Below, one piece after another: positions 3,699 to 49,227 of a stretch of 59,985 nt of DNA. The position numbers and the translations under genes were made by a program. The DNA is from Escherichia phage vB_EcoS_OddieOddie. The DNA is taken from the sequence record OL539454.1; one strand, given 5' to 3'. The notes under the pieces are model-generated. The model saw nothing but the letters and a program-made list of their open reading frames with translations, was not told the DNA's origin and searched no databases. Every line of letters starts with the position of its first letter. The first letter of the stretch is position 1.

Positions 3699-4571
3699 AT
3701 GAAAAAGAGTTCTGTAGCTATTAGTGTTGGTTTTGCTCTAATTAATCCACGCGCTCGCGGTGAAGGTGATGTGGAACTGGAATACGAATATGCATCTGCG
3801 GAAGAGATCCCGGCAGAGTTTGCTGCCCTTTACGCAGAGCAGGGTGGTAAATACGTTCTTGCAAAAGTTAAAGGTGTAGCACCTGCTGATAGCGTTCGTC
3901 GTCTGGAAAGTGCATTAGCAAAAGAACGTAACGATCATCGTCAGGTGAAGCAACAGATTAGCGCACTTGGACGTCCGGTTGAAGAAGTTCTTGCGGACCT
4001 TGATCGTATCCCTCAACTGGAAGCTGCCGCTAACGGTAAAGGTACTCCGGAAGACATCGAAAAGATGGTTAAAGCTCGTCTTGCGCCGCTTGAGCGCCAA
4101 TTGCAAACTGTTATCACCGAGCGTGACACGGTTAAGCAGGAAATTGAAGGCTACCGCACTCGCGAAACTAAAGCGAAGATTAAAGATGCAGTTATTGCCG
4201 CTGCTTCTGGTGCTAAATTGCGTCCATCTGCTATCGAAGACGCTGTAACTTATGCACAGTTGCAGATGACCGTCGACGAGAACGGCAATGTGGTTACGAA
4301 AGATGGGGCTGGTGTAACTCCATACCTAACTCCAGCGGATTGGCTTAACGAGATCCTCCCGAAACGTCCTCACTGGGTCGAGGGTTCTGCTGGTGGTGGT
4401 GCATCTGGTCCTGGCGCTGGAGGCCATCACGGTGAAGACCCATACAGTCACGACGGTTGGAACATCTCTAAGCAGATGAACCTCTGGAAAACTAACCAAT
4501 CTTTAGCTAAACGCTTAGCTGAAAAGAATGGCGTAGATCCGCTGAAGCCTGTACGTCCTGCTAAGAAATAA
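3699..4571 (+). CDS. putative scaffolding protein
   Basis: 290-aa charged, helical (K/E/A-rich) ORF between portal and capsid genes; synteny only. Confidence 0.45.
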   Translation: MKKSSVAISVGFALINPRARGEGDVELEYEYASAEEIPAEFAALYAEQGGKYVLAKVKGVAPADSVRRLESALAKERNDHRQVKQQISALGRPVEEVLADLDRIPQLEAAANGKGTPEDIEKMVKARLAPLERQLQTVITERDTVKQEIEGYRTRETKAKIKDAVIAAASGAKLRPSAIEDAVTYAQLQMTVDENGNVVTKDGAGVTPYLTPADWLNEILPKRPHWVEGSAGGGASGPGAGGHHGEDPYSHDGWNISKQMNLWKTNQSLAKRLAEKNGVDPLKPVRPAKK

Positions 4572-4693
4572 GTTGACATCCCGACGTCCCTGATGTTAAG
4601 TTTCAACACATCAGGGACACGGGTTCCTAAACAGCCTTCCACGGGGAAAGGCTACCAACAGTAAACAAATCAATCCTTTTCCTGGAGACAAGT

Positions 4694-5755
4694 ATGTCTA
4701 AATCTAAAATTATTCTACCATTTGGTCGTGGTGAAACTGACCTGACTCGTTTGAAGGATGTCATTGTCCCTGAGATCTTCACTGGTTATGTGCAGACGCA
4801 GACCGCTGAACTTTCTGCCCTGATCCAATCCGGTGCGGTTGTAATGGACGAGCGTTTATCTGCTAACCTTGCTGGTGCAGGTTTGACTTTTAACGAGCCG
4901 TTCTATAATGACCTGAAAGACGAAGACGAAGATATTGCGATCGATAAAGGTGCTCCGTCCAAACCGTCAAACATCACTACCGGATCTGAAGTTCAGGTTC
5001 GTATGAGTCGTTCAAAATCCTGGGGTTCTGCGGATCTGGTATCTGCTTTGATTGGTAACGACCCAATGACCGCTATCGGCAACCGCGTGTCTGCGTGGTG
5101 GGTTCGCCGTCTGCAAGCTGCATACATCGCAACCTGGAAAGGTGTATTTGCTAATGCGAAGAAATCCCATAACGACGATTTGACTTTCGATATTTCCGGT
5201 TCTTCGTTTGTAAACAACCAGACCAACTTTACCGCGTCTAACTTCATCAACGCAACGGCAACGATGGGTGATGCTGCTCGTGGTCTGACCATGATTATGG
5301 TACACTCTACCGTTCGTAACCGTATGCGTCAGTTGAACCTGATCGACTTCATTCCAGATGCTCGCGGTGAAACTCAGTTTGAGTATTATCAGGGTCTGCG
5401 TATTATTGAAGACGACTCCATGCCGCACGATCCGGCTACTGGTATCTTTGAAAGCTGGCTGTTCGGCCCGGGCGCGACTGCAATGGGTGCTGGTTCACCA
5501 AAAGTTCCGACCGCTGTGGTTCGTGACGAAGCTGCTAACAATGGCGCTGGTGAAGAAGTTCTTCACAACCGTGTTGAATGGATTCTGCATCCGGTCGGTC
5601 ATGCTTGGGCTGCTGCCCAAACTGCTAAAGGTGGTCCGTCTAACGCTGCTACCACTAACAACCTGGCCCATGAAGATTCCTGGCGTCGTGCGTTCCCTGA
5701 GCGCAAGCAGCTTAAAGTCGCACGCCTGATCACTCGTGAGTATCAGGGTTCCTAA
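4694..5755 (+). CDS. major capsid protein
   Basis: 353-aa ORF after scaffold candidate, followed by a strong terminator; synteny and size. Confidence 0.65.
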   Translation: MSKSKIILPFGRGETDLTRLKDVIVPEIFTGYVQTQTAELSALIQSGAVVMDERLSANLAGAGLTFNEPFYNDLKDEDEDIAIDKGAPSKPSNITTGSEVQVRMSRSKSWGSADLVSALIGNDPMTAIGNRVSAWWVRRLQAAYIATWKGVFANAKKSHNDDLTFDISGSSFVNNQTNFTASNFINATATMGDAARGLTMIMVHSTVRNRMRQLNLIDFIPDARGETQFEYYQGLRIIEDDSMPHDPATGIFESWLFGPGATAMGAGSPKVPTAVVRDEAANNGAGEEVLHNRVEWILHPVGHAWAAAQTAKGGPSNAATTNNLAHEDSWRRAFPERKQLKVARLITREYQGS

Positions 5756-5776
5756 GGCTTCACTCAACGCCGCGCT

Positions 5777-5802
5777 GTAGTATTTTGGGGACATTTATGT
5801 CC
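5777..5802 (+). terminator. rho-independent terminator after capsid gene
   Basis: GGGGACAT-TT-ATGTCCCC hairpin followed by TCTTTTTT. Confidence 0.6.
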
Positions 5803-5824
5803 CCTCTTTTTTAGGAGAACAACC

Positions 5825-6148
5825 ATGCGTTATCAACGTTATGAACGACATGACTTGATGGAAAAATCGTTGCAGGTGGAGCCAATTTCGATTACTCTCG
5901 ATCCTGCTAAGATTGACACCACAACTTCAGAAGTAAAGACGGTTACTGTTAAAATAAACTTTGTCCCAGGCGGAACTACAAACAAAGCGTATAGCGCGTC
6001 AGTTGACGGTTCCTCTGCTACAATTAAAGACAACGGGGACGGTACAATTACCGTGACCACAACCGCAAGTAGTGGTACTTCAAACTTGACAGTAACGTCC
6101 AAGGCAAAGGATAGTGTTACTGGTACATGTGTTATTAATGTGACCTAA
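5825..6148 (+). CDS. Ig-like domain protein (possible capsid decoration)
   Basis: 107-aa T/S/V-rich beta-type sequence (TVTVKINF...TITVTTTASSGTSNLTVTS) typical of bacterial Ig-like folds; follows capsid gene. Confidence 0.45.
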   Translation: MRYQRYERHDLMEKSLQVEPISITLDPAKIDTTTSEVKTVTVKINFVPGGTTNKAYSASVDGSSATIKDNGDGTITVTTTASSGTSNLTVTSKAKDSVTGTCVINVT

Positions 6149-6164
6149 AAATAAGGATTAAACA

Positions 6165-6818
6165 ATGAAGACATTAATTGAAGCATTGTTAGAACTTGAT
6201 CCGGATAACCCGAATCATTGGACCAGCGATGGCTTACCTAAAGTTGACGCTCTGCGTTTCGCTACCGCTAACCCGTCTTTAACCCGCGACGATATTACAA
6301 CTGCTGCTCCGCTGTTTACCCGCGATAACCGCGTGCTGGAAGAGCCAGAGCCAGTGGAACCTGTTAAATCTGCTGATCCAGTTTTACATGAAGCTGTCAA
6401 ACAGGAGAAAGCTCATGAAGAACAAAAGAAAGTCGCGGTTGCAACGATGCAAATCGAAGTTAAGATTAGCGAAGCACTGCGTGCTCTTCTGGAGCCGGAA
6501 AAAATCGGTGACACTTCCAGCTTAACCGATGAAGAACTGAAAGCGAAGCGTGAAAAGCTTAGCAATGTGGTTAAAGAGATTGCTGACACTAAGCACGCGC
6601 TGGAGCTTGCTATTGCCGACGTTCAAGCGGATCTGGATAAGATTATCGTTGAGCAGGAAAGTCGTCGTCCTAAGTCCGGTCTTACTGCAACTCAGATGTA
6701 TCTCGAGGCGCAGAAAAAACGTAAACCTGAAGACATGCTTTCTGACCATCGCTTCCAGAACCCTATCGACGATCCGGTTGCCCGTATGGTTGCACGTAAT
6801 ATGATGCGTCGAGGTTAA
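6165..6818 (+). CDS. hypothetical structural-module protein
   Basis: 217-aa ORF in late arm, SD upstream. Confidence 0.45.
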   Translation: MKTLIEALLELDPDNPNHWTSDGLPKVDALRFATANPSLTRDDITTAAPLFTRDNRVLEEPEPVEPVKSADPVLHEAVKQEKAHEEQKKVAVATMQIEVKISEALRALLEPEKIGDTSSLTDEELKAKREKLSNVVKEIADTKHALELAIADVQADLDKIIVEQESRRPKSGLTATQMYLEAQKKRKPEDMLSDHRFQNPIDDPVARMVARNMMRRG

Positions 6819-6956
6819 TCATGGAAATGAGCCATAGACAATATGTGTTGTGGCTCCTCCGACGTAATAGAAAACGGCGTCAAGAAGACGCCGTTTCTGT
6901 TCCTGAAGAAGGGCTCCCGCCACTTATCCCTACAACCATCGCAATGAGGAAGAAAG

Positions 6957-7463
6957 ATGGAGATTCCACTGATAGTTGAAGATGGTACTGGTGTATCTGA
7001 CGCCAACAGTTATGTGACCATTGAACAAGTCCGCATGTATGCCGCAATGCGAGGTATTGTACTTCCAAGTGAAGATGAAGATCTAAAGACAAAGATCTTC
7101 GACGCTATGGATTTTGTGGAAGGGTACGGTCAACGGTTTAAGGGTTACAAAATGGACCCACAGCAACCGCTAAATTGGCCACGCTACGGGGTGTTTGTGG
7201 ATGGGTTCGAGCTACCCCAAAGCCCTTTGCCAAAGGCGCTTATAAACGCGGTTTGCCAGCTTACAGCGGACTCTGCATCTGGCGGTCCTCTTAACGGTAA
7301 AACTACAGCATATGCAGTCAAAAGAACTAAAGTGGAAGGGCTTGAGATTGAATATGCAACTGGTAGTACCGCGCAATCCGGACCAGCAAAGACTTACGAT
7401 AAAGCAATGACGTTTTTATCACCTTTGCTGGGTTATCAAATGGGTAACAGGTTAATACGGTGA
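6957..7463 (+). CDS. putative head-tail connector/adaptor protein
   Basis: 168-aa ORF in conserved head-tail joining position; synteny only. Confidence 0.4.
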   Translation: MEIPLIVEDGTGVSDANSYVTIEQVRMYAAMRGIVLPSEDEDLKTKIFDAMDFVEGYGQRFKGYKMDPQQPLNWPRYGVFVDGFELPQSPLPKALINAVCQLTADSASGGPLNGKTTAYAVKRTKVEGLEIEYATGSTAQSGPAKTYDKAMTFLSPLLGYQMGNRLIR

Positions 7464-7466
7464 TTT

Positions 7467-7847
7467 ATGAGCTTTCCTTATGAGCAGTTAGTTGAAGCTG
7501 CAAAGCAAATGATCAACGACGCTGGCGTGAACTGTACCCTTGTGGTCATGGAAAAAGGAGAAGGTCAAGATGAGTGGGACGATCCTAGTGTTGAAAAACG
7601 CTACCCATTTATCGGAGCTTTTCTTTCTCCGAAGGAAAAAATGATCGGTGGGAGCCTTGTTGCTACTGGCGAATTGAAAGTCTTAACCTATCCAATGACT
7701 CCACCATTGACACGAGATAAAGCAATGACTGCACGCATTGAGCGTATGTCTCCTGATGGTGAGTTGGAAGTATGGACAATTAACGAGTTCGTTGATACAA
7801 GACCTGCTAATGTTTCTGTTCTTTATACTTTCAAGGTGACGCGATAA
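7467..7847 (+). CDS. putative head closure protein
   Basis: 126-aa ORF tightly packed after previous gene; synteny only. Confidence 0.35.
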   Translation: MSFPYEQLVEAAKQMINDAGVNCTLVVMEKGEGQDEWDDPSVEKRYPFIGAFLSPKEKMIGGSLVATGELKVLTYPMTPPLTRDKAMTARIERMSPDGELEVWTINEFVDTRPANVSVLYTFKVTR

Positions 7848-8254
7848 TGGGATTCGGAGCGGATATACGGCGTGCAAGTCAAAAGGTGCTTGTCCAGACT
7901 GGGGAGCAAGCCAAAAAGGTTGTTGTCAAGTTCACGGAGAATGTAATTCAGGATACTCCTGTTAAGACCGGACGTACAAAAGGCGGTTGGCGTTCATCCA
8001 TTGGTGCACCATATGCGACGGAAACTATCCGCCTCGATCCTACTGGGGAATTAGCTAAAGCGGAAGCTAGGGTTATCGTAAGACAGTTGCCAGATGATAA
8101 AGACTGGACTTTCTACTTTAGCAACTTAACCCCGTATGCTCCGAAACTTGAATATCTTGGTTGGTCGCAGCAAGCGCCAAATGGCATGGTGCGTATTAAC
8201 GTAGCGAAGCTACCAATGTTGATACGCCAAGCTATTGTAGAAGGAAAACTATAA
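7847..8254 (+). CDS. putative neck/tail completion protein
   Basis: 135-aa ORF, start overlaps upstream stop (ATGA-type coupling); synteny only. Confidence 0.35.
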   Translation: MGFGADIRRASQKVLVQTGEQAKKVVVKFTENVIQDTPVKTGRTKGGWRSSIGAPYATETIRLDPTGELAKAEARVIVRQLPDDKDWTFYFSNLTPYAPKLEYLGWSQQAPNGMVRINVAKLPMLIRQAIVEGKL

Positions 8255-8703
8255 TGCTGGGATACGATTTTATCAATGACGCATTTAATAAGATGCTACG
8301 CGAAGCCGTTGGACCGGATATAGGTATAGCGTGGAAGAACAAGAAGTTTACACCTAAAGCGAATCAGATGTGGTTAAAGGCAATCAATGCACCTGCATCT
8401 ACATACGCGGCAACGTTAGGTGACAACGGTCTGAATGAAATTCCAGGATTCTATCAAGTTACAGTGTACAGTCCGTTAAACACTGGAACGTCTAAACAGA
8501 ATCAAATCTTGGATTCCATTCGGAAAAAGTTTAAACTGGGCTTGCGTATCCCGTGCCCGGATGACCACACGATACGAATTGTCAGCTTAGACTTTTCGCA
8601 GGGTGGACAAACTTCGCTGAATAATTTTACCAGAGGCGGGGTTGAAGACAACTGGGACGTTAACTTTATTACAATCTATTGGTCGGCTCGTGAGCCGAGG
8701 TAA
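8254..8703 (+). CDS. putative tail terminator/completion protein
   Basis: 149-aa ORF immediately upstream of major tail protein; synteny only. Confidence 0.35.
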   Translation: MLGYDFINDAFNKMLREAVGPDIGIAWKNKKFTPKANQMWLKAINAPASTYAATLGDNGLNEIPGFYQVTVYSPLNTGTSKQNQILDSIRKKFKLGLRIPCPDDHTIRIVSLDFSQGGQTSLNNFTRGGVEDNWDVNFITIYWSAREPR

Positions 8704-25335: not shown

Positions 25336-25691
25336 TATGCTTTCCCTTTACGACATAAGGCTTGAAGTTCCAGAAGCGCATCAATGTCTTCCTGTGGAGT
25401 TACACCAACGTGAATTGGATATTTAGCGCGACATTCGTAGCCAACGTCAACAGTGTGGTCAATGTAGCCGTAAACACATCCACCAATAACAGTGAAGATA
25501 AGCGCAACAATCATTGTAAGGTATTTGCCTTGTTTGCGTTCTTCATTTTGTTTATTAAGCTGACGGTTAAGTTCCACCGCGTCGATTTTACCTTTGTTGT
25601 AATCGTCTACTAAGCTCATTTTGCATCTCCTCTTGTTGTATGCATATATTAAAACAGACCCGCGAAGGGTCTGCAAGTAGAATTTAGGCAT
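25335..25691 (-). CDS. membrane-anchored hypothetical protein
   Basis: 118-aa ORF with one central hydrophobic helix. Confidence 0.4.
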   Translation of the reverse strand: MPKFYLQTLRGSVLIYAYNKRRCKMSLVDDYNKGKIDAVELNRQLNKQNEERKQGKYLTMIVALIFTVIGGCVYGYIDHTVDVGYECRAKYPIHVGVTPQEDIDALLELQALCRKGKA

Positions 25692-27723
25692 ATCCCATGT
25701 CTTCGAGATACTTCTCTGCTTTAGCTATATAAGCATCATAATCTATGTCGTCCGGTATTTTATCCGGTAGCGTCATGATTGGGACACCTCCCGCGCTACC
25801 AGCTACACGGTTGCCCGAGTTAGCATAGATTATTTCGGGAGTTTCTTCATTGGTGCTTAAATACCAGCGTACAACCTTACCCAAAAATTCGCCATTCCAT
25901 ACCGCGCCACCTTTCACCGCACGTAGGATAATGAATTTTCTAATATCGTTGCAATTGCGTATAGTACGAGAAACAGGCGTACCGTGGGCCAGGCATTCGC
26001 ATACAGCTTCCATGATAATTTCACCCGTACAGTTCTTTTGAAGTCCCGTCTTAGCAAACCAGCCTTTACGTTTGATTTCAACATTTCCTTCCTCATCAGG
26101 TTCTTTTACTGCAACATAGTTATTGACGTTAGCACTGTACAGCTTGTCATAGTAGTTGGATTCCATTTCAAAGCCTGTCACAGACTCCCACCACTTGATC
26201 ATGTTATCAACGAAGCCCTGCATGTGGTCAGGATACTTAACCACAATACCATCCGTGTTAGCAGAAATTACTTTAACACCGTTCAGCTCGAATGCTTCAA
26301 TAAGCATTAACAGGGATAGCTGTCCGGTGATAGTTACCTGTATCAATAATTGCGGCGCGTACAATACGGACCACATTGAACCCAATTTACCAAACGATCC
26401 GTTGATAACGATCTTCAGCGTGTTGGCTGTGTTCTTGTCCCCTGAGTGCTTAGCCGCAATACGACGGTCTACAATGCTTTTATAAACACGAAGAAACGCT
26501 GGTCCCAACTGCTCAGGGTATAAGCCCTGATTAAGAATAATTGAAGGGTAATAGGACGTTACGTCAATGTCCCGCTTCTTAATACCTGGCTCTTTACCGT
26601 GACCAGCACACTCTTCGGAGCTATGCAAACCGCCAATACCCATACGGTAGACACCGTCCGCAATCTTGATCTCCAGGCCTGATAACGCTGGGGGCAAGCT
26701 AACGCCACCGTTATCGCTAACAACAAAGCGGCAGTCCCGAACAATATCCAAAACACTATTCATCAGAGGTGTTTGAAAACGAATAAAGTCCGGTATGTTA
26801 TATGCATATTTAGTTCCAGGATAAACTTGTGGACGCTGCGGACGCACGCCCGTTAACGCTTGAATTTCGTGTTTAATCACGTCTTCTGCAATCTGCGCAT
26901 CAGAACGTGAACGCAGATCCACACCGTATTCTTGCGACATAATTTCACGAAGATGTAAAGGTTCCTGTAATGCAATAAAACATTCTTCCGTCTGTACAAG
27001 GTCGTTAATACAGTACCAGCGTACAATCAACATCTGGTCCTGCGTCAGCATTGTATTTGGCTTGAACGGTAAATCCTGCATACGGCGAGTATGTACACGT
27101 CCGCCATATTGTTTCAAACCACCGGACCCAGGCAGCACTTCCATAATATCAATGTGGTTAACGTTCTGCATACGCTTAAGGCGGTAACTCTTCAACACAT
27201 CAGAAGGACGCCAGTCTTCCACGATTATCTTATCGGTTGCATCTTTAAGCTGAGCATTAGAGCATCCGTTAAGCGCAAGCGTAGCAATGGGCATATCGTA
27301 CCCGTTGCCGTTAAAGCTCACGATAAGGAAGTTTATCATTACCCAGTTAAGTAACAAGCAATTTAAACTACAACCGTGATACATTTCGAAATAGACAACT
27401 TTCTTAGTCCTTACTCCGCGGAATGCGATCAAGAAGTAGTTTGGATAACATTCGATATCGTATACAAGCGGTTCGCGGTTAATCCATGCTTGAATAAGTT
27501 CATCCTGTGTATACAGGTTGTATTGGAAGTTCCGCGCTTCCTCAAGGTTAGGCAAATAATCCGGGCGCTCCCAAGTGCGCTCCGGCGGTAAACGTTTAAC
27601 TTTTTCTTTCTTTGCTTTTGGCTCAGGCGGTAAGTCCTGCCAAAAGAAACCAATAGCATCTGTCCGCATTAGACACGTTCTCCAATTAATACACCGCGAA
27701 GATTTTCCCCAAAGAATGCGCAA
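25684..27723 (-). CDS. family B DNA polymerase with 3'-5' exonuclease motifs
   Basis: 679-aa ORF; exo-I-like YDIECYP; motif A-like DVTSYYPSII; motif B-like KIVINGSFGKLG; motif C-like SANTDGIVV. Confidence 0.7.
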   Translation of the reverse strand: MRILWGKSSRCINWRTCLMRTDAIGFFWQDLPPEPKAKKEKVKRLPPERTWERPDYLPNLEEARNFQYNLYTQDELIQAWINREPLVYDIECYPNYFLIAFRGVRTKKVVYFEMYHGCSLNCLLLNWVMINFLIVSFNGNGYDMPIATLALNGCSNAQLKDATDKIIVEDWRPSDVLKSYRLKRMQNVNHIDIMEVLPGSGGLKQYGGRVHTRRMQDLPFKPNTMLTQDQMLIVRWYCINDLVQTEECFIALQEPLHLREIMSQEYGVDLRSRSDAQIAEDVIKHEIQALTGVRPQRPQVYPGTKYAYNIPDFIRFQTPLMNSVLDIVRDCRFVVSDNGGVSLPPALSGLEIKIADGVYRMGIGGLHSSEECAGHGKEPGIKKRDIDVTSYYPSIILNQGLYPEQLGPAFLRVYKSIVDRRIAAKHSGDKNTANTLKIVINGSFGKLGSMWSVLYAPQLLIQVTITGQLSLLMLIEAFELNGVKVISANTDGIVVKYPDHMQGFVDNMIKWWESVTGFEMESNYYDKLYSANVNNYVAVKEPDEEGNVEIKRKGWFAKTGLQKNCTGEIIMEAVCECLAHGTPVSRTIRNCNDIRKFIILRAVKGGAVWNGEFLGKVVRWYLSTNEETPEIIYANSGNRVAGSAGGVPIMTLPDKIPDDIDYDAYIAKAEKYLEDMGYA

Positions 27724-28622
27724 GGTTGCGGATATAAACTAAAGTCCGCAGTCTTAACCACATTTTCGAGTAATAACAGGATGTCAATATTGTAAACTCC
27801 CGTTATTGATCTGTCCTGCAATACGAAGCTTGCACCTTCCGCATCATCGTAATGAGTACGCGCTAGACCGTTTTCAATATATACGCGAGGACGATCTTCT
27901 GCAAAAGGTTTAATTTTATGCAAACCCTCAAAAAGACCGGGATCAACAGGATGTGCATTGCATTGAACATTTAAAATACGACGTATATCAGGCCACTCCG
28001 CATCAATAAGCTGTGTTCGCAACCAGCGACCTTCCGGATAATGAAATGTTACATTGTTCTTACTAACCTGAATATGTGTCGGGTTAGCTTTAATGCGCAG
28101 TATTTCTTTAATAGCAACAGACGGTATTATGCAGTCAATAGGGAATTGATTACCAAACCAATATTCCGCAATGGTGACGTTATTTGTAGCAAACAGGCTA
28201 CCGTTATTAATCAGAATACCGCAAGCCCACGGGCGGGACGCATCCGAGCCTACAAACGGAGCAACAGACTTCACACCGTGTACGAAGCGAGCACCGTCTA
28301 TTTCGTATAACTCCCCTTCAGGGAATACGTGAGGCGTTTCCTTGTCAATGCAGCGTATAGCAACACGAAACGGTCCGGATTTGATATTAAGTTTACCGTT
28401 AGCCATCATTGTTAACTGTACGGTTTCGTCACAGTTTGAAATAGCTTTAATCATAGGTCCAGCTTCGGGCTTGCAATCAATATCCAGCTCAATAGGGCTA
28501 CCCAGTGCAATAACACCGTTAAATCCCTGTACCTGTCCATCACGAATAAGAAAGCTGGTAAGACCTTCTACCAGTTCCTTTTTAGCGACGGAGCCTTGAA
28601 CAAATTTAAGAGCGTCTAACAT
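27669..28622 (-). CDS. hypothetical protein (possibly sliding-clamp-like)
   Basis: 317-aa ORF between polymerase and dpdA; function not determinable by eye. Confidence 0.4.
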   Translation of the reverse strand: MLDALKFVQGSVAKKELVEGLTSFLIRDGQVQGFNGVIALGSPIELDIDCKPEAGPMIKAISNCDETVQLTMMANGKLNIKSGPFRVAIRCIDKETPHVFPEGELYEIDGARFVHGVKSVAPFVGSDASRPWACGILINNGSLFATNNVTIAEYWFGNQFPIDCIIPSVAIKEILRIKANPTHIQVSKNNVTFHYPEGRWLRTQLIDAEWPDIRRILNVQCNAHPVDPGLFEGLHKIKPFAEDRPRVYIENGLARTHYDDAEGASFVLQDRSITGVYNIDILLLLENVVKTADFSLYPQPCAFFGENLRGVLIGERV

Positions 28623-28849
28623 TAGCGGTCCTCGATTGCTCTAATTGTGGTTAAATCTAATTCACATGTTGGAGGGTATCCATAAAGTCCCATTTGTTTT
28701 CCTTGTGCATTAAACCATGTACCTGACGGATCCTGCCACTGCTTAGGTGTCTTGTGGAGAAATACTACTCTGTTTTCACCGTAATAATTAATTCTTACAC
28801 CTGTGTGAGTATATTTACGTTTACCTTTTGGTCTTCTTAAGTTAGCCAT
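28622..28849 (-). CDS. hypothetical protein
   Basis: 75-aa basic ORF. Confidence 0.4.
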   Translation of the reverse strand: MANLRRPKGKRKYTHTGVRINYYGENRVVFLHKTPKQWQDPSGTWFNAQGKQMGLYGYPPTCELDLTTIRAIEDR

Positions 28850-29769
28850 CAGAACAACTCCATTACACGATCACGGAATGTGCCGTCATGGGTAGCGTTA
28901 ATGTTTGCAGCAATTACACCATACGCCCATAAATTGAAGGCAGCACGTGATTCATAGATTGTTGATAAACGTTCGTAAGTGAAACCGTTTTGCTCAAGGT
29001 ATTTAAGGACAGCGTCTTGTTCAATTTCAGTTAATGTTGAAACATGCTTGCCAAAATGGTGGCGATCCGGTGACTTATCAGATACGCGCATTGGACCCCA
29101 CGGAGGAGTAACCACACTTCCAAACGCTGCCGCTTGAATCCAGGAGGAAGAGTCGCAGCTATACCACGGATAACGTTCCATAATGGTTGTGGACGTAATA
29201 CCAAACGCATGAAGTTTAATCTTAGCACGTCCGCTACCGTCGCAAATGTATTTGTCCCACATGCGGTCCAGCCAAGTTTTAAGCGTGTCCGTGGAACGCC
29301 CTACCATGCCCCCGATGGTGATATATTCGTAGTTCTTCATGTAGTATTCAAGATAGCGGAAGTCCTCCCCAAAGTGAAAGCAAGGTAACGGTTTAGCACC
29401 GCGTGCTTCCATTTCAAGTTGGTTACGGTAGGTTTGCAACGGATCACCAATACCATCGAGCACTGACGCCATTACTGCGCCATCTTCTACACGAAGGATG
29501 TCTTTGTTGCGCTTAATGTATTCGCAGTATTCAACAATATCAATGTGAGCACCCAAAGAGTGCGCGGAGAATGCACCGGAGTCGAGAAACACTTTAGCCC
29601 CGTCAGCACGCATCTGATCAACATACTTTTGACGTCCAACGTAGTGGTATGATTCCAAAATATGGGGCAGATTGCGCGTGATATTTTTCTCATGCTCGGA
29701 CAGCTTTTCATAACGCTGCTGGCCGGGCATATATCCGTTTGTGTAAACTGCTGCCATAAAAACGTTCAT
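28849..29769 (-). CDS. dpdA: tRNA-guanine transglycosylase-like DNA-modifying enzyme (DpdA-like)
   Basis: 306-aa ORF with TGT-like nucleophile motif VFLDSGAFS; located beside folE/queD/queC/queE. Confidence 0.6.
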   Translation of the reverse strand: MNVFMAAVYTNGYMPGQQRYEKLSEHEKNITRNLPHILESYHYVGRQKYVDQMRADGAKVFLDSGAFSAHSLGAHIDIVEYCEYIKRNKDILRVEDGAVMASVLDGIGDPLQTYRNQLEMEARGAKPLPCFHFGEDFRYLEYYMKNYEYITIGGMVGRSTDTLKTWLDRMWDKYICDGSGRAKIKLHAFGITSTTIMERYPWYSCDSSSWIQAAAFGSVVTPPWGPMRVSDKSPDRHHFGKHVSTLTEIEQDAVLKYLEQNGFTYERLSTIYESRAAFNLWAYGVIAANINATHDGTFRDRVMELF

Positions 29770-29999
29770 TTTTGGAACGGTCCTCCAAACTGATCAATTA
29801 GTTCTAAAGTACGCCACACTTCATTAAATGCTTCGTCCGCTCGATGTTTAGCGTCAATAAGCTGCTGCTTTAAGATATTTGTAGGCGCATCATTCTGTAT
29901 TGCAGAGCAAGCATCCGCAGTACCTGCTTTAAGCTTGTAGAATGCAGCTTCTAAAATTAATTGTCTTGACATATTTTCCCCAATGACTAAAAAGCCCAT
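29766..29999 (-). CDS. hypothetical protein
   Basis: 77-aa ORF between dpdA and folE. Confidence 0.4.
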   Translation of the reverse strand: MGFLVIGENMSRQLILEAAFYKLKAGTADACSAIQNDAPTNILKQQLIDAKHRADEAFNEVWRTLELIDQFGGPFQK

Positions 30000-30043: not shown

Positions 30044-30658
30044 TTATTTACAAGCTTCAAGGAACTCACGGCGCCATTCTTTACCAATATCGCTACCATG
30101 CTCCAGTTCTGTAGCGCCACGGAACGCTTTAGTAATAGTAGAGCTGCCGCATACCTGCTTAACACCGCGCGACTCCATGCACATATGCTTGGCGTCAATA
30201 TAAACACATACAGCTTTCGGGTTTAAATGCTCCTGAATAGCGTCTGCAATCTGGTTAGTAAGACGTTCCTGAACTTGCAGTCGACGACTAAAAGCATCCA
30301 CAACGCGAGACAGCTTACTAAGCCCAACGATCTTCCCATTGGGAACATAACCCACAACAGCATGACCGATAATAGGAGCCATGTGATGCTCACAATGACT
30401 GTATACAGGAATATCACGGACAATGACCATTTCATTGGTGTTTTCCGCTCCGTCCTCAAAGGTCTTAAACAACCCAGCAATATCTACATCATAACCGCCG
30501 AACCACGTCTGGTATGCTTTAGCAACACGTTCAGGAGTCTCTTCCAACCCAGGACGGAGTTCTGTTGAACCTTCAATATTTAAAAGTAATGAACTAATGG
30601 CAATTTTTACAGTATCTTTACGCATGGTTTGCAGTTTCCTTGTTGTTAATGTGGTCAT
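30044..30658 (-). CDS. folE: GTP cyclohydrolase I
   Basis: 204-aa ORF with SHCEHHMAPI and VGLSKLSRVVDAFSRRLQVQERLT signature. Confidence 0.8.
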   Translation of the reverse strand: MTTLTTRKLQTMRKDTVKIAISSLLLNIEGSTELRPGLEETPERVAKAYQTWFGGYDVDIAGLFKTFEDGAENTNEMVIVRDIPVYSHCEHHMAPIIGHAVVGYVPNGKIVGLSKLSRVVDAFSRRLQVQERLTNQIADAIQEHLNPKAVCVYIDAKHMCMESRGVKQVCGSSTITKAFRGATELEHGSDIGKEWRREFLEACK

Positions 30659-44560: not shown

Positions 44561-45034
44561 TTAAGAATATGTACCTGTTTGAACAATGTGGCTAATAGCA
44601 TGTGCTCTGAAGATTTCTCTAAAATCTTCAAGCTCTATTGTAGCGCGAATCGGTTCCTTCTTGATATAATAATTGAACTCATTAATATCAAAGACGGAAG
44701 GATTCATACATATAACAACTTTCCAACCAGCTCTAGGAATCTTATACATTAAGACCGGAATTTTATTACATTCACGTGCAGACTTAACAGTTTGCTTCCA
44801 CCATGTATTAACAGCAAGAGTTGCATGGTTTTTAATCTCTACACAATATTGACAAGTGTTATCAATGTCCGCACCACCTACAGCCGATTGATTCTGTCGT
44901 CTTTGTGCGATAGGTTTAGGTGGTAAAGGTCTACCGATAAGCTCATGTACTTCAGCATAAATATCGTTGAAAAAATCACAAGCTTCTCGTTCCGCACGCT
45001 GACCCTTTTGTCGTATGTTAACCATGATTCGCAA
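44561..45034 (-). CDS. small PD-(D/E)XK-type nuclease candidate
   Basis: 157-aa ORF with GGADID ... VEIKN (D...ExK pattern). Confidence 0.4.
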   Translation of the reverse strand: MRIMVNIRQKGQRAEREACDFFNDIYAEVHELIGRPLPPKPIAQRRQNQSAVGGADIDNTCQYCVEIKNHATLAVNTWWKQTVKSARECNKIPVLMYKIPRAGWKVVICMNPSVFDINEFNYYIKKEPIRATIELEDFREIFRAHAISHIVQTGTYS

Positions 45035-45503
45035 ATTCCTTATGTAATTCTAATCTTTTAGACTTAACCCAACTTTTAGCAGATTGTAAACCTTCAGGTG
45101 TAAAATCAAAATATTTTGATACCAAAACACCTCTTACGTGTAGGTTTGCATAATAAACTTGGATACCGTTATGTTTTGCAATGGTGACGCATTTAACTCC
45201 TGTTTTTGAGTCTTTACGAATAACCATATTATAATTGTTCTGTGAACGATCTGCCAGTCTAAGATTTTCTATTCTGTTATCGTCTTTAACTCCATTAATA
45301 TGATCTATCACCATCCCTTCAGGTATAGGTCCGTTAAAGTATTGCCATATTAACCTGTGAGCAAAATAAAACCTCTTATCAATCTTGCCTTGAATATAAC
45401 CGTCCTGACGTTTTGTACCAAATGGTCTTTTATTATAGCCGTTTTTATTTCTTTGAAACAATTTACCGTCTATATAAATAAAGCGTTCGTTTACATTGAT
45501 CAT
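45018..45503 (-). CDS. HNH homing endonuclease
   Basis: 161-aa ORF with DHINGVKDDNRIENLRL HNH motif and AP2-like C-terminal region; preceded by a terminator-like hairpin. Confidence 0.7.
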   Translation of the reverse strand: MINVNERFIYIDGKLFQRNKNGYNKRPFGTKRQDGYIQGKIDKRFYFAHRLIWQYFNGPIPEGMVIDHINGVKDDNRIENLRLADRSQNNYNMVIRKDSKTGVKCVTIAKHNGIQVYYANLHVRGVLVSKYFDFTPEGLQSAKSWVKSKRLELHKEFANHG

Positions 45504-46865: not shown

Positions 46866-46896
46866 AATAAAGGGCCTTTCGGCCCTTTATTTATTT
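46866..46896. terminator. bidirectional terminator
   Basis: AAGGGCC-TTTC-GGCCCTT hairpin with TATTTATTT downstream and A-run upstream; abuts the primase stop codon. Confidence 0.6.
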
Positions 46897-49227
46897 GCTT
46901 AAGTCTTTGAAAACACTCTCAATTGACTCGTCTATATACCATCCCAACCCCCTGAAATTACGCTTCAATGCATCCTCACGCGTAACCGGAACAAGCGCGC
47001 CCATGTCTACAAGTTGTTTGATAGTCAGGTCTGTCGCAGTACCTGCCCCCATCCTGTGATTCTTGAATGCTGCTAACCCGTAGGTTCTGCGTGTGATAGT
47101 TGCCTTCGGAATAATACCGTCAACTCGCAGCTCCTTACGATCACATGCAATTTTACCGCCAAGATAATCTTTGCAGACCTGACAGATAGCCTTCACACGC
47201 GTTTCATCATCACCGCCAATAGTACCTTTTTCCCATGCGTTGATCATGATATCCTGCCCATGCGTAACAAAATCTACCGCCCATTGCATGTGATTGGGCT
47301 GAACGACAGGATTGATCCAGTTTTCCCCCACTGCTAACAGGGAGGCAAGACGCAGAGCTTTAAGGTGTGCACGGTTCCACGGCTGACGAATTGCTTCGTC
47401 TTTAGTTGCGTTAATGTGTTCATCACATAACAAGTTAAACCCCCGTTCAATCCTTTCCGCTTCAGGGCTTAACTGGACGGTAACGGTCTGGAATTTTGCC
47501 ATTGTCACTAACGTGTGGTTAACGAGATGGCAGACCATGTCCTTTAATTGTTGCGGCATTGTGATTTCAGGATTTTCGTTTGCAGGAACACGATCCCCTT
47601 CATATTGCACAATGTGGAAACGGGACAAGAAACCGTCTTCCATCATTTCACGGGTTAACGCTTCAAAGAATGTGTCCGGTGTTGTTTCGCCCAGCACGCT
47701 GAACGCCACCCCTTCCATCGTTTTGGTATTGTTAGCCTTATCAGAATATCCGATACCGCCAACAACATCCATAGCACCAGATTTTTGATACACATCTGTG
47801 ATAGTTTGCTTCAGGGTGTAGTTTGCAGTGCCAGGTTGAGCTGTCGCCATACCTTTGATGGTTTTACCAAACTCACCGTTAATATTCACAAACGAAGTGT
47901 GATCCGCAAAACTTTTACGCAAGGCAGGACCGGAAGCATAGTTAGTCATATCTACAAACTCATGCACTTGCGGTAATTGCTCGCCTACTTGCTTACAGAT
48001 ATAACTAGGTCCAGCGTGAAGCATTTCTTTACCCACACCTGATCGAGCAATAAGCACAAAGTAACCGTTCAGCCCTGTGTTGGTGATAGTATTCCACACC
48101 TTGCCGCATACGCCGGATAAGAATGCTAACGATGCGGTGATTGCAATTTCTTTCACCGGACGCTGCGACGCCTTGTAGATATACTTCGCAAGCTCACCAG
48201 CAAGACCCGGCGGCCATTCAATAGCTGTTGCATCAATGGACGTGCTTTCAGCAACTACAATTTCACCGGACGGGCTGACTGTGGTTACAGGCATTTCCGT
48301 TACCTGCTGCATTGCACTGTGTGCGGCTTGCATACGGGCAGCGTAATCCCGCGCCAGCGCCGCTACGTTTTCCTGGGCAATACGCTCACGCTCCATGCGA
48401 CCGCGACACATACGCAAGCAACGGTCAATATGAACATTGTTCTTATTAGCCTTCTCACGTTTGCCCAGTGCACTGTAACGGAACAGACGGCGACATTGCT
48501 CATTACTTTCTGTGTAAAATGCATACATGGAAATAAGGGCAAGGTCTGCTTCAGACTGGGAAGGGAATCCCATTTCAACCCATTCGCCATTGAATAGGCG
48601 TGCATACTTATCCCCGTTGTCCGCTTCAAGTGCTCGCTGGTGAATAGTCGCATCGTCTTCTACCGGATCTTTTTCTACCAGTTCAATCTCATATGTCTTG
48701 CGCTGAAGATCAATTTCATTCACAAGCATAGTAAGATAATGATCACGTTCTGCAACTGGTTTGTTATAGACAGGATTACCCGTGCAGATAATAAAACGCT
48801 CCTGACTATAAACCTCGACACCATCACGTCGGCGACCTTTACCGATGTTCCCTCTTAACCACAGGTGGACGCCCAAGCCTGAGCGACTTACTTCGGTGTA
48901 AGTATCGAACGCAGTCATGATCTGTTCGAAGCGGCGCAACTGTTCCGGCGTCGTGTGCTTCTTGGGATCAGGCTCATTGGTTGCGTTCTTCACATCCAGG
49001 TCGATGCAGGTGAACGGGTCTTGCGCAGTAAGCACGAAGCCAATATAAGGTTTATTGAAATGAGCGGCGCAACCTTTAGCGGCTTCAAACGTCATAAGCA
49101 TATCCGGATCGGTAACGTCTGCCGCCATCAAACGTCCGATATCGTTGTCCCATACAAGCGGCTTTTTATCCGCATCGGCGACCGCCCATTGTGGAAAAGC
49201 TTTAATTTCAGCGGGAAACAGTTCCAT
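46891..49227 (-). CDS. primase-helicase (archaeo-eukaryotic primase-like N-terminus fused to ATPase)
   Basis: 778-aa ORF; primase-like SRSGLGVHLW motif; central P-loop-like ARSGVGKE. Confidence 0.6.
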   Translation of the reverse strand: MELFPAEIKAFPQWAVADADKKPLVWDNDIGRLMAADVTDPDMLMTFEAAKGCAAHFNKPYIGFVLTAQDPFTCIDLDVKNATNEPDPKKHTTPEQLRRFEQIMTAFDTYTEVSRSGLGVHLWLRGNIGKGRRRDGVEVYSQERFIICTGNPVYNKPVAERDHYLTMLVNEIDLQRKTYEIELVEKDPVEDDATIHQRALEADNGDKYARLFNGEWVEMGFPSQSEADLALISMYAFYTESNEQCRRLFRYSALGKREKANKNNVHIDRCLRMCRGRMERERIAQENVAALARDYAARMQAAHSAMQQVTEMPVTTVSPSGEIVVAESTSIDATAIEWPPGLAGELAKYIYKASQRPVKEIAITASLAFLSGVCGKVWNTITNTGLNGYFVLIARSGVGKEMLHAGPSYICKQVGEQLPQVHEFVDMTNYASGPALRKSFADHTSFVNINGEFGKTIKGMATAQPGTANYTLKQTITDVYQKSGAMDVVGGIGYSDKANNTKTMEGVAFSVLGETTPDTFFEALTREMMEDGFLSRFHIVQYEGDRVPANENPEITMPQQLKDMVCHLVNHTLVTMAKFQTVTVQLSPEAERIERGFNLLCDEHINATKDEAIRQPWNRAHLKALRLASLLAVGENWINPVVQPNHMQWAVDFVTHGQDIMINAWEKGTIGGDDETRVKAICQVCKDYLGGKIACDRKELRVDGIIPKATITRRTYGLAAFKNHRMGAGTATDLTIKQLVDMGALVPVTREDALKRNFRGLGWYIDESIESVFKDLSK

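Follow-up and report, generated by a model that had tools for sequence, protein, structure and literature searches.

Between the gene dpdA, encoding a DNA 7-deazaguanine transglycosylase, and the gene for a family-B DNA polymerase (PolB), the genome of Escherichia phage vB_EcoS_OddieOddie (OL539454.1) carries two open reading frames (ORFs) of 317 and 75 codons. The whole stretch of 59,985 nucleotides (nt) that was analysed is referred to here as the window. The question raised by the locus is whether the products of the two ORFs belong to replication or to base modification. The original prediction, made from the letters alone, had left both unassigned and had proposed either a replication accessory factor, with the larger one vaguely resembling a clamp, or a novel partner of DpdA. 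Both ORFs were found exactly where they had been placed, on the minus strand (Table 1). The best overall explanation, to which we give a probability of roughly 0.8, is that the 317-aa protein is a sliding clamp for PolB and the 75-aa protein an accessory factor in an early DNA-metabolism module. The source is a CAjan-like Seuratvirus (Queuovirinae): about 1.7 kb around the locus are 97-98% identical at the nucleotide level to SA80RD, the SLUR phages and CAjan, and the full-length locus is matched in 34 phage records in GenBank. The label “unassigned” holds for the smaller ORF, which is 100% identical to the “hypothetical protein” gp34 of CAjan, but not for the larger one, which is 99.7% identical to CAjan gp33, a “DNA polymerase processivity factor”. 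As originally stated, the finding is ordinary: the identity of the clamp is already known, and the 75-aa ORF encodes a lineage-specific hypothetical protein.

The clamp-like nature of the larger ORF was borne out by profile search, structure prediction and fold search, and it is also what public annotation says: most of the 34 near-identical GenBank records name the protein “DNA polymerase processivity factor” or “DNA polymerase beta subunit”. It matches phrog_947 with an E-value of 5.6e-82, residues 1-317 aligning to positions 12-365 of the 368 in the profile, and this full-length match, together with the adjoining polB, places it in PHROG 947. Homologues are present in 361 phage records. Compared with Salmonella phage STP-SP5, the ratio of non-synonymous to synonymous substitution rates (dN/dS) is 0.046. 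The annotated processivity factors of the Queuovirinae and related siphoviruses (PHROG 947; CAjan gp33, 9g gp02, PaMx25 gp34) represent the same gene, located between dpdA and polB; the 317-aa protein is about 52% identical to the clamps of 9g and PaMx25, with no substantive difference. To our knowledge, PHROG 947 clamps have not been characterised biochemically, and no such work was found in the literature searched.

At the sequence level, the relationship to bacterial clamps is remote. A single-sequence search reached the beta clamp of Escherichia coli at an E-value of 0.01, and a profile of 53 family sequences matched the Rickettsia beta clamp in the PDB at 2e-4. An AlphaFold2 (AF2) model built from the 53-sequence alignment has a mean predicted local distance difference test score (pLDDT) of 92.7 and a predicted template modelling score (pTM) of 0.87, and consists of three repeated helix-plus-sheet domains with six main helices. 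When this model was compared with the PDB using Foldseek, each of the top 50 matches was a bacterial DnaN clamp, and the alignments ran over the entire chain (best E-value 3e-21, template modelling (TM) scores of 0.79-0.85, 14-18% identity), with 353-372 columns on DnaN chains of 360-380 residues. They include the DnaN proteins of E. coli and Pseudomonas aeruginosa, at an E-value of 3e-21 and TM scores of 0.83-0.85. The architecture of a three-domain, single-chain DNA clamp was thus recovered by AF2 and Foldseek, and neither of the two ORFs gave a confident match to an unrelated protein family. Conservation relative to E. coli beta is highest in EWPDIRRIL, which corresponds to RFPDYRRVL of the bacterial protein. 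The E. coli segment contributes to the hydrophobic peptide-binding pocket between domains II and III: its residues P242, R246 and V247, listed among the peptide-pocket residues of E. coli beta (PMC11139829) and belonging to subsite I, align to P211, R215 and I216 of the phage clamp, and neither W210 nor P211 varies within the phage family. On the strength of the model, we regard the 317-aa protein as a beta-type clamp that is both compact and divergent. It shares with bacterial beta (E. coli beta, PDB 1MMI and 7AZC) the three-domain fold over its full length, the predicted two helices and beta sheets per domain and the PDxRR[VI] pocket segment, and its gene is likewise paired with a polymerase that bears a terminal hydrophobic peptide. 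It differs in its low sequence identity (14-18%), in being about 50 residues shorter (317 compared to 366), in its partner, a family-B polymerase instead of DNA polymerase III, and in the absence of a recognisable cognate loader gene.

By analogy with bacterial beta, the 317-aa protein would most likely form a head-to-tail homodimeric ring around duplex DNA and tether PolB for processive synthesis of phage DNA. Docking would probably involve a peptide at the very start of the polymerase: Seuratvirus, Nonagvirus and Nipunavirus all retain the N-terminus MRxDA[IL]G[FL]FW, behind which lies a linker rich in Pro and Lys. For a broader comparison, a survey of viral contigs made with a DpdA alignment yielded 57 loci, 53 of them with a complete DpdA, comprising 47 distinct DpdAs and 43 distinct polymerases. 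This MRxDA[IL]G[FL]FW start is kept in all 43 polymerases, each with a G[LFMI][FWY]W pattern close to its N-terminus. Terminal clamp-binding peptides are found in E. coli clamp clients (Pol II QLGLF, Pol IV QLVLGL, delta AMSLF and the N-terminal motif of Hda), and the polymerase sequence A-I-G-F-F (A-L-G-L-F in PaMx25) fits the pattern phi/Q-x-x-[LF]-F at a chain end. If the assignment is correct, the locus would be an example of a family-B polymerase served by a beta-type clamp for which the phage itself encodes no loader.

Several observations weigh against this explanation. Domain III of the clamp, which would carry subsite II of the pocket, has no beta-clamp sequence match in the PDB. The protein also misses curated cut-offs, scoring 22.3 against 27 bits for PF02767 and 34.2 against 137.65 bits for TIGR00663; among PF00712, PF02767 and PF02768, only PF02767 matches at all, below its threshold. 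By these criteria it is therefore a divergent structural homologue and not a family member. No gene resembling an AAA+ clamp loader was recognised in the CAjan annotation or among the 10 larger early ORFs of the window scanned against the PHROGs, so that the gamma complex of the host, or a factor that escaped recognition, would probably load the clamp. Furthermore, the record of phage Seurat (NC_027378) has a 280-bp deletion, corresponding to about 28413-28692 of the window and bounded by AACAA microhomology, which takes out the first ~71 residues of the clamp and the tail of the 75-aa ORF, cutting the latter to 56 aa. Should this deletion be genuine, both proteins would be dispensable under laboratory conditions; an assembly error is also possible. 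Finally, no fold or family match with a functional annotation was obtained for the 75-aa protein, and a DNA-binding role for it is a best guess drawn from charge, fold class and neighbourhood.

The idea of a DpdA partner may survive in another form, namely that the partner is the clamp itself, docked by a short LF-containing tail at the C-terminus of DpdA. According to this tentative proposal, which we consider less likely than not, polymerase and DpdA would share the clamp as a hub, and the actual partner of DpdA would be the clamp, with the [QR][ED]LF tail entering the same hydrophobic pocket as the polymerase peptide. Insertion of dPreQ0 at GA/GGC sites would then be coupled to clamps on newly synthesised phage DNA. 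This adds to the clamp explanation and is not exclusive of it. Two regularities in the survey argue for such a link. First, in 52 of the 53 loci the clamp gene lies immediately downstream of dpdA on the same strand (median gap, 8 nt), and the order dpdA-clamp-polB, kept in 52/53, is also present in 9g, PaMx25, PSASB_03 and Ssp-JY38. Second, [LF][FY] occurs within the last seven residues of all 47 distinct DpdAs (LF in 45), compared to 10 of 654 other survey ORFs of at least 150 aa. In the alignment of DpdA C-termini, a conserved core is followed by a variable, indel-bearing linker and then by the conserved tail. The tails read RVMELF in the window, RLQDLFDE in 9g and RIQELF in PaMx25, with variants such as QIGLF, QQDLF, KQELFQ, RQTLF and RQGFF. 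Clamp-linked DpdAs of PSASB_03, Ssp-JY38 and ART end in QMELF, PVLF and QMELLG, respectively. Within the window, DpdA is the sole ORF of 86 with a C-terminal LF.

The tail and a nearby DnaN gene persist at only ~30% DpdA identity in two phages of Gram-positive hosts, Streptococcus phage Dp-1 and Bacillus phage Flasso. Their tails, QRRLF and QGKLF respectively, are canonical in form, and dnaN is located 0.6 kb downstream of dpdA, past two small ORFs. Conversely, the DpdAs of Qyrzula, Mufasa8 and Epa33 have neither a neighbouring clamp nor the tail. The DpdA tails also resemble the clamp-binding consensus Q-phi-x-[LM]-[FL], of which the LF moiety can bind alone, and which is often found at a chain terminus (PMC11139829). 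With [IV]-Q-E-L-F, and Q-I-G-L-F, Q-R-R-L-F or Q-G-K-L-F in relatives, they fit phi/Q-x-x-[LF]-F as the polymerase peptide does, although, compared to the E. coli clients, the glutamine (Gln) of the phage candidates is often one position off or absent.

Side observations concern the layout of some of these loci. In Dp-1 (3793-6419 of the locus) and Flasso (5932-8477), the order of dpdA, two small ORFs, dnaN and a gene for a Cas4-like exonuclease mirrors that of dpdA, small ORF and clamp in Seuratvirus. In Pseudomonas phage Epa33 (5863-8692 of the locus), a short DpdA-like protein ends in QAELSL, loosely similar to the hexameric clamp-binding motif, and is directly followed by a C5 cytosine methyltransferase instead of a clamp. 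A third candidate client was considered and rejected: the primase/helicase (46891-49227, minus strand) begins with MELF, but this is MDKF in Pantoea phage Vid5 and forms part of the start of a conserved FPxEIKA[FY]PxW domain, and its match to the DpdA tail is probably coincidental.

The evidence for docking of DpdA has to be balanced against several points. The tail-bearing DpdAs all belong to one clade, so that conservation and synteny are phylogenetically confounded and not independent of each other. The F-x3-[IV]-x2-LF spacing of the tail would also fit an amphipathic C-terminal helix packing on the enzyme or at a dimer interface. A check against the clamp-binding pattern showed that the terminal LF/FF is conserved while the position of Gln varies, and the window tail, RVMELF, is without Gln. 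The short DpdA of phiSM has no tail, despite a DnaN gene 2.5 kb away. Moreover, DpdA2 of Vibrio phage nt-1, which belongs to another subtype, needs no co-expressed partner in E. coli to place preQ0 in plasmid DNA (PMC10516641), which implies that a phage clamp is not generally needed for catalysis.

Known systems offer two comparisons. The bacterial dpd system requires a protein partner of DpdA, DpdB, for insertion of preQ0 into DNA (PMC10516641). The original prediction drew on this system, but neither ORF resembles DpdB in searches of PADLOC, Pfam and NCBIfam models, whereas PADLOC-DB does detect the neighbouring DpdA weakly. In eukaryotes, the interaction between DNMT1 and PCNA brings a DNA-modifying enzyme to newly replicated DNA by means of a short clamp-binding motif. 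This is an analogy only, given that clamp family, chemistry (methyl transfer as opposed to base exchange) and domain of life all differ.

Taken further, the clamp might be a hub for two clients, with the polymerase docked by DA[IL]G[FL]FW and DpdA by [QR][ED]LF, base exchange coupled to clamps on new DNA, and the 75-aa protein as an optional adaptor; we consider this extended scheme possible but doubtful. If true, DpdA would be the first DNA-hypermodifying transglycosylase known as a client of a sliding clamp, and there would be an explanation for the synteny of dpdA and clamp, which extends from Queuovirinae of Proteobacteria to Dp-1 and Flasso, the phages of Gram-positive hosts. Phage DpdA is said to modify ~30% of guanines after replication, and the literature searched gives no account of how phage DNA is targeted efficiently. 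The DpdA tail and the near-universal adjacency of dpdA and clamp would provide a simple and testable mechanism, i.e., replication-coupled modification. Among the papers searched, none connects DpdA with a sliding clamp; work on Queuovirinae describes the modification genes as adjoining the polymerase genes and leaves the clamp unmentioned. The lead yields two short candidate clamp-binding peptides (GTFRDRVMELF and MRTDAIGFFWQDL) and one small protein for direct tests, and CAjan has already been edited with CRISPR (PMC7544227).

The role of the 75-aa protein is the second part of the question. Both ORFs are genuine genes, as calculated directly from their substitution patterns. Between the window and STP-SP5, the 75-aa ORF has accumulated 30.5 synonymous and 17.5 non-synonymous differences (dN/dS 0.07; dpdA, 0.037), and closer relatives show 3-5 synonymous and 0 non-synonymous changes, with the exception of GottfriedDienst. 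The protein (8.8 kDa, pI 9.9) has Lys or Arg at 7 of its first 12 positions. Its AF2 model (pLDDT 82.7) is all-beta, with five strands forming a small beta-barrel behind the K/R-rich N-terminal tail. Against the PHROGs, phrog_38388 is matched with an E-value of 8e-58, and 1226 and 5148 weakly. Among 5.8 billion proteins, only 13 matching clusters were found, all on Seuratvirus-like contigs and at the same position; five remote relatives, with E-values of 1e-5 to 8e-4, were added when 1.84 billion cluster representatives were searched with a profile. The family shares the motifs K-Y-T-H-x-G, L-R-E/K-T-K-x-W and L-D-L-x-[TS]-[IV]. No meaningful match came from PDB, Pfam, NCBIfam or PADLOC when searched by sequence and profile, and a fold search of BFVD retrieved uncharacterised phage proteins only (TM 0.7-0.8). 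A locus search with the family alignment produced 38 pattern matches, none of which was confirmed. The proteins of PHROG 38388, 1226 and 5148 (e.g., KPP12 ORF67 and JG024 E5E3J2 of Pbunavirus) have motifs and structure in common with the 75-aa protein and are all uncharacterised. The Seuratvirus members differ from them by the Lys/Arg-rich N-terminal extension, whereas in Pbunavirus the gene is duplicated in tandem and is followed by that of a Dda-like helicase.

Relatives of the 75-aa protein lie directly before a Dda-like helicase gene, as tandem duplications, in Pbunavirus and on one metagenomic contig. In phage Mulvp2, a relative precedes the gene for a primase/D5-type helicase. The gene of one remote homologue comes right after that of an N6/N4 DNA methyltransferase and overlaps its end, and others are found among small nin-like early ORFs. 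Our best guess is that the 75-aa protein is a small accessory factor of early DNA metabolism that binds nucleic acid or associates with the replisome. Overall, we judge it to be a real, dispensable, fast-evolving and non-universal accessory protein. Its dispensability is suggested by an ENA contig (ERZ27313683, 60.5 kb; locus 2501-2656), on which the ORF stops after codon 51 while the downstream sequence and the clamp are intact; whether natural or an assembly variant, this stop suggests that the C-terminal strand or the entire protein can be lost. Two candidate clamp-binding motifs within the protein were considered and rejected. The Pol II-like QMGLY (residues 52-56) reads QMGLN, QLGLR, QMGAG or GMLAG in relatives, and the C-terminal LDLTTI falls into the predicted fifth barrel strand (62-71) and leaves no free tail.

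Alternatively, the 75-aa protein could be a host-directed early protein, e.g., an inhibitor of host replication, repair or defence, that occupies a permissive slot and has no tie to its neighbours. The slot between dpdA and clamp does accept unrelated small ORFs (in GottfriedDienst, yong3 and locus L094, and two each in Dp-1 and Flasso), the gap between the two genes ranges from 0 to 732 nt, and the family is patchy, fast-evolving and dispensable, with relatives also among the nin-like early ORFs. However, the PADLOC models gave no match for the protein, and its recurrence directly upstream of helicase/primase genes, twice as tandem duplications, fits a replisome role somewhat better. We regard a host-directed role as unlikely.

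The reading closest to the original prediction is that the 75-aa protein is a lineage-specific accessory or specificity factor of DpdA, responsible, for instance, for the second target motif of CAjan, GGC, besides GA. The ORF is translationally coupled to dpdA by a TGATG overlap, and the remote homologue behind the DNA methyltransferase gene would be in keeping with a function in modification. CAjan, which has the 75-aa gene, modifies GA and GGC (PMC7544227), with about 32% of its G affected, and the DpdA of Iggyvirus is strictly specific for GA (PMC10484667), a comparison that covers two phages only. Against this stands the distribution of the gene. It is confined to the Seuratvirus lineage, being present in 3 of the 57 surveyed dpdA loci, all of them Seuratvirus, and in none of the others. 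In Nonagvirus 9g and Nipunavirus PaMx25, as in dozens of metagenomic relatives, dpdA abuts the clamp gene directly, and about 45 other dpdA-clamp loci lack the ORF in addition to these two genera. Distant homologues occur in phages beside other genes, those of Pbunavirus and further phages adjoining helicase/primase genes. The protein also evolves far faster than DpdA (dN of 0.91 compared to 0.074 relative to yong3), and nonsense and deletion variants exist in otherwise intact genomes. The idea of a dedicated DpdA partner encoded by this ORF thus lacks support: we do not think that the 75-aa protein is an obligate or dedicated subunit of DpdA, and even a lineage-specific accessory function is improbable. 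That the ORF arose by chance or is a non-coding spacer, as its shortness, its lack of a Pfam or NCBIfam family and the existence of truncated versions might suggest, is already refuted by the substitution pattern, and is further contradicted by 33% identity kept in yong3 at the same position, a confident fold and remote profile homologues.

Further observations were made on the slot itself and on the family. The additional ORFs between the 75-aa ORF and the clamp gene encode 78 aa in GottfriedDienst (2728-2964 of its locus), a DUF1653 protein in yong3 (3765-3986 of its locus) and 60 aa in locus L094 (3728-3910). In WildeMaa and SHIN8, the alignment across the 75-aa/clamp region is in two pieces. 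A family homologue in Edwardsiella phage GF-2 (3989-4201 of its locus), just after the gene for replication protein P, contains two in-frame stops; it is either a pseudogene or a sequencing error and was not used.

Returning to the arrangement of the window locus, dpdA, the 75-aa ORF, the clamp gene and polB form a run of four genes (Table 1) in which all three junctions are 1-nt overlaps of stop and start codons: TGATG between dpdA and the 75-aa ORF, and TAATG at both the 75-aa/317-aa and the clamp/polB junctions. The start of the polymerase at the ATG given in the table follows from the CAjan annotation and from the overlap with the TAA stop of the clamp gene; the TTG at 27723 proposed by the ORF finder is an artefact. 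Relatives of the window DpdA are annotated as DpdA or as queuine tRNA-ribosyltransferase.

Table 1. Features of the dpdA-polB region in the window, in order of transcription.
Feature	Coordinates	Strand	Remarks
folE	30044-30658	minus	
Small ORF	29766-29999	minus	phrog_20065 (no function known); 3' end overlaps dpdA start
dpdA, DNA 7-deazaguanine transglycosylase	28849-29769	minus	phrog_887, E 8e-96
Candidate clamp-binding-like DpdA tail RVMELF	28852-28869	minus	last six dpdA codons
75-aa ORF	28622-28849	minus	= CAjan gp34; phrog_38388
317-aa ORF, predicted beta-type (DnaN-like) sliding clamp	27669-28622	minus	= CAjan gp33; phrog_947
Family-B DNA polymerase	25684-27669	minus	661 aa from ATG 27669; phrog_1252, E 1.5e-227
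Candidate N-terminal clamp-binding motif DAIGFFW	27640-27660	minus	polymerase residues 4-10; Pro/Lys-rich linker after
Intrinsic-terminator-like hairpin	25654-25674	minus	8-bp stem and T-run directly after polymerase stop; consensus scan only

The hairpin behind the polymerase gene is likely the 3' end of a transcription unit, of which the small phrog_20065 ORF is the probable first gene. A promoter-like site is located at 30035-30006 on the minus strand; such sites are no commoner in the region than expected by chance. The genes would accordingly be expressed as one coupled early unit, running from the small ORF through dpdA, the 75-aa ORF, clamp and polB to the terminator, with the originally flagged segment representing its two middle genes. 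Elsewhere in the window, the early region at 34-50 kb encodes Sak4, a protein resembling single-stranded DNA-binding protein (SSB), a primase, a helicase, a ligase, RNase H and an exonuclease of the Cas4 type. It also contains a 161-aa HNH endonuclease ORF (45018-45503, minus strand; phrog_99, E 5e-46) that adjoins a RusA-like resolvase gene. In CAjan, no gene is annotated at this site and an HNH gene is located elsewhere; the ORF may be a mobile homing-endonuclease insertion.

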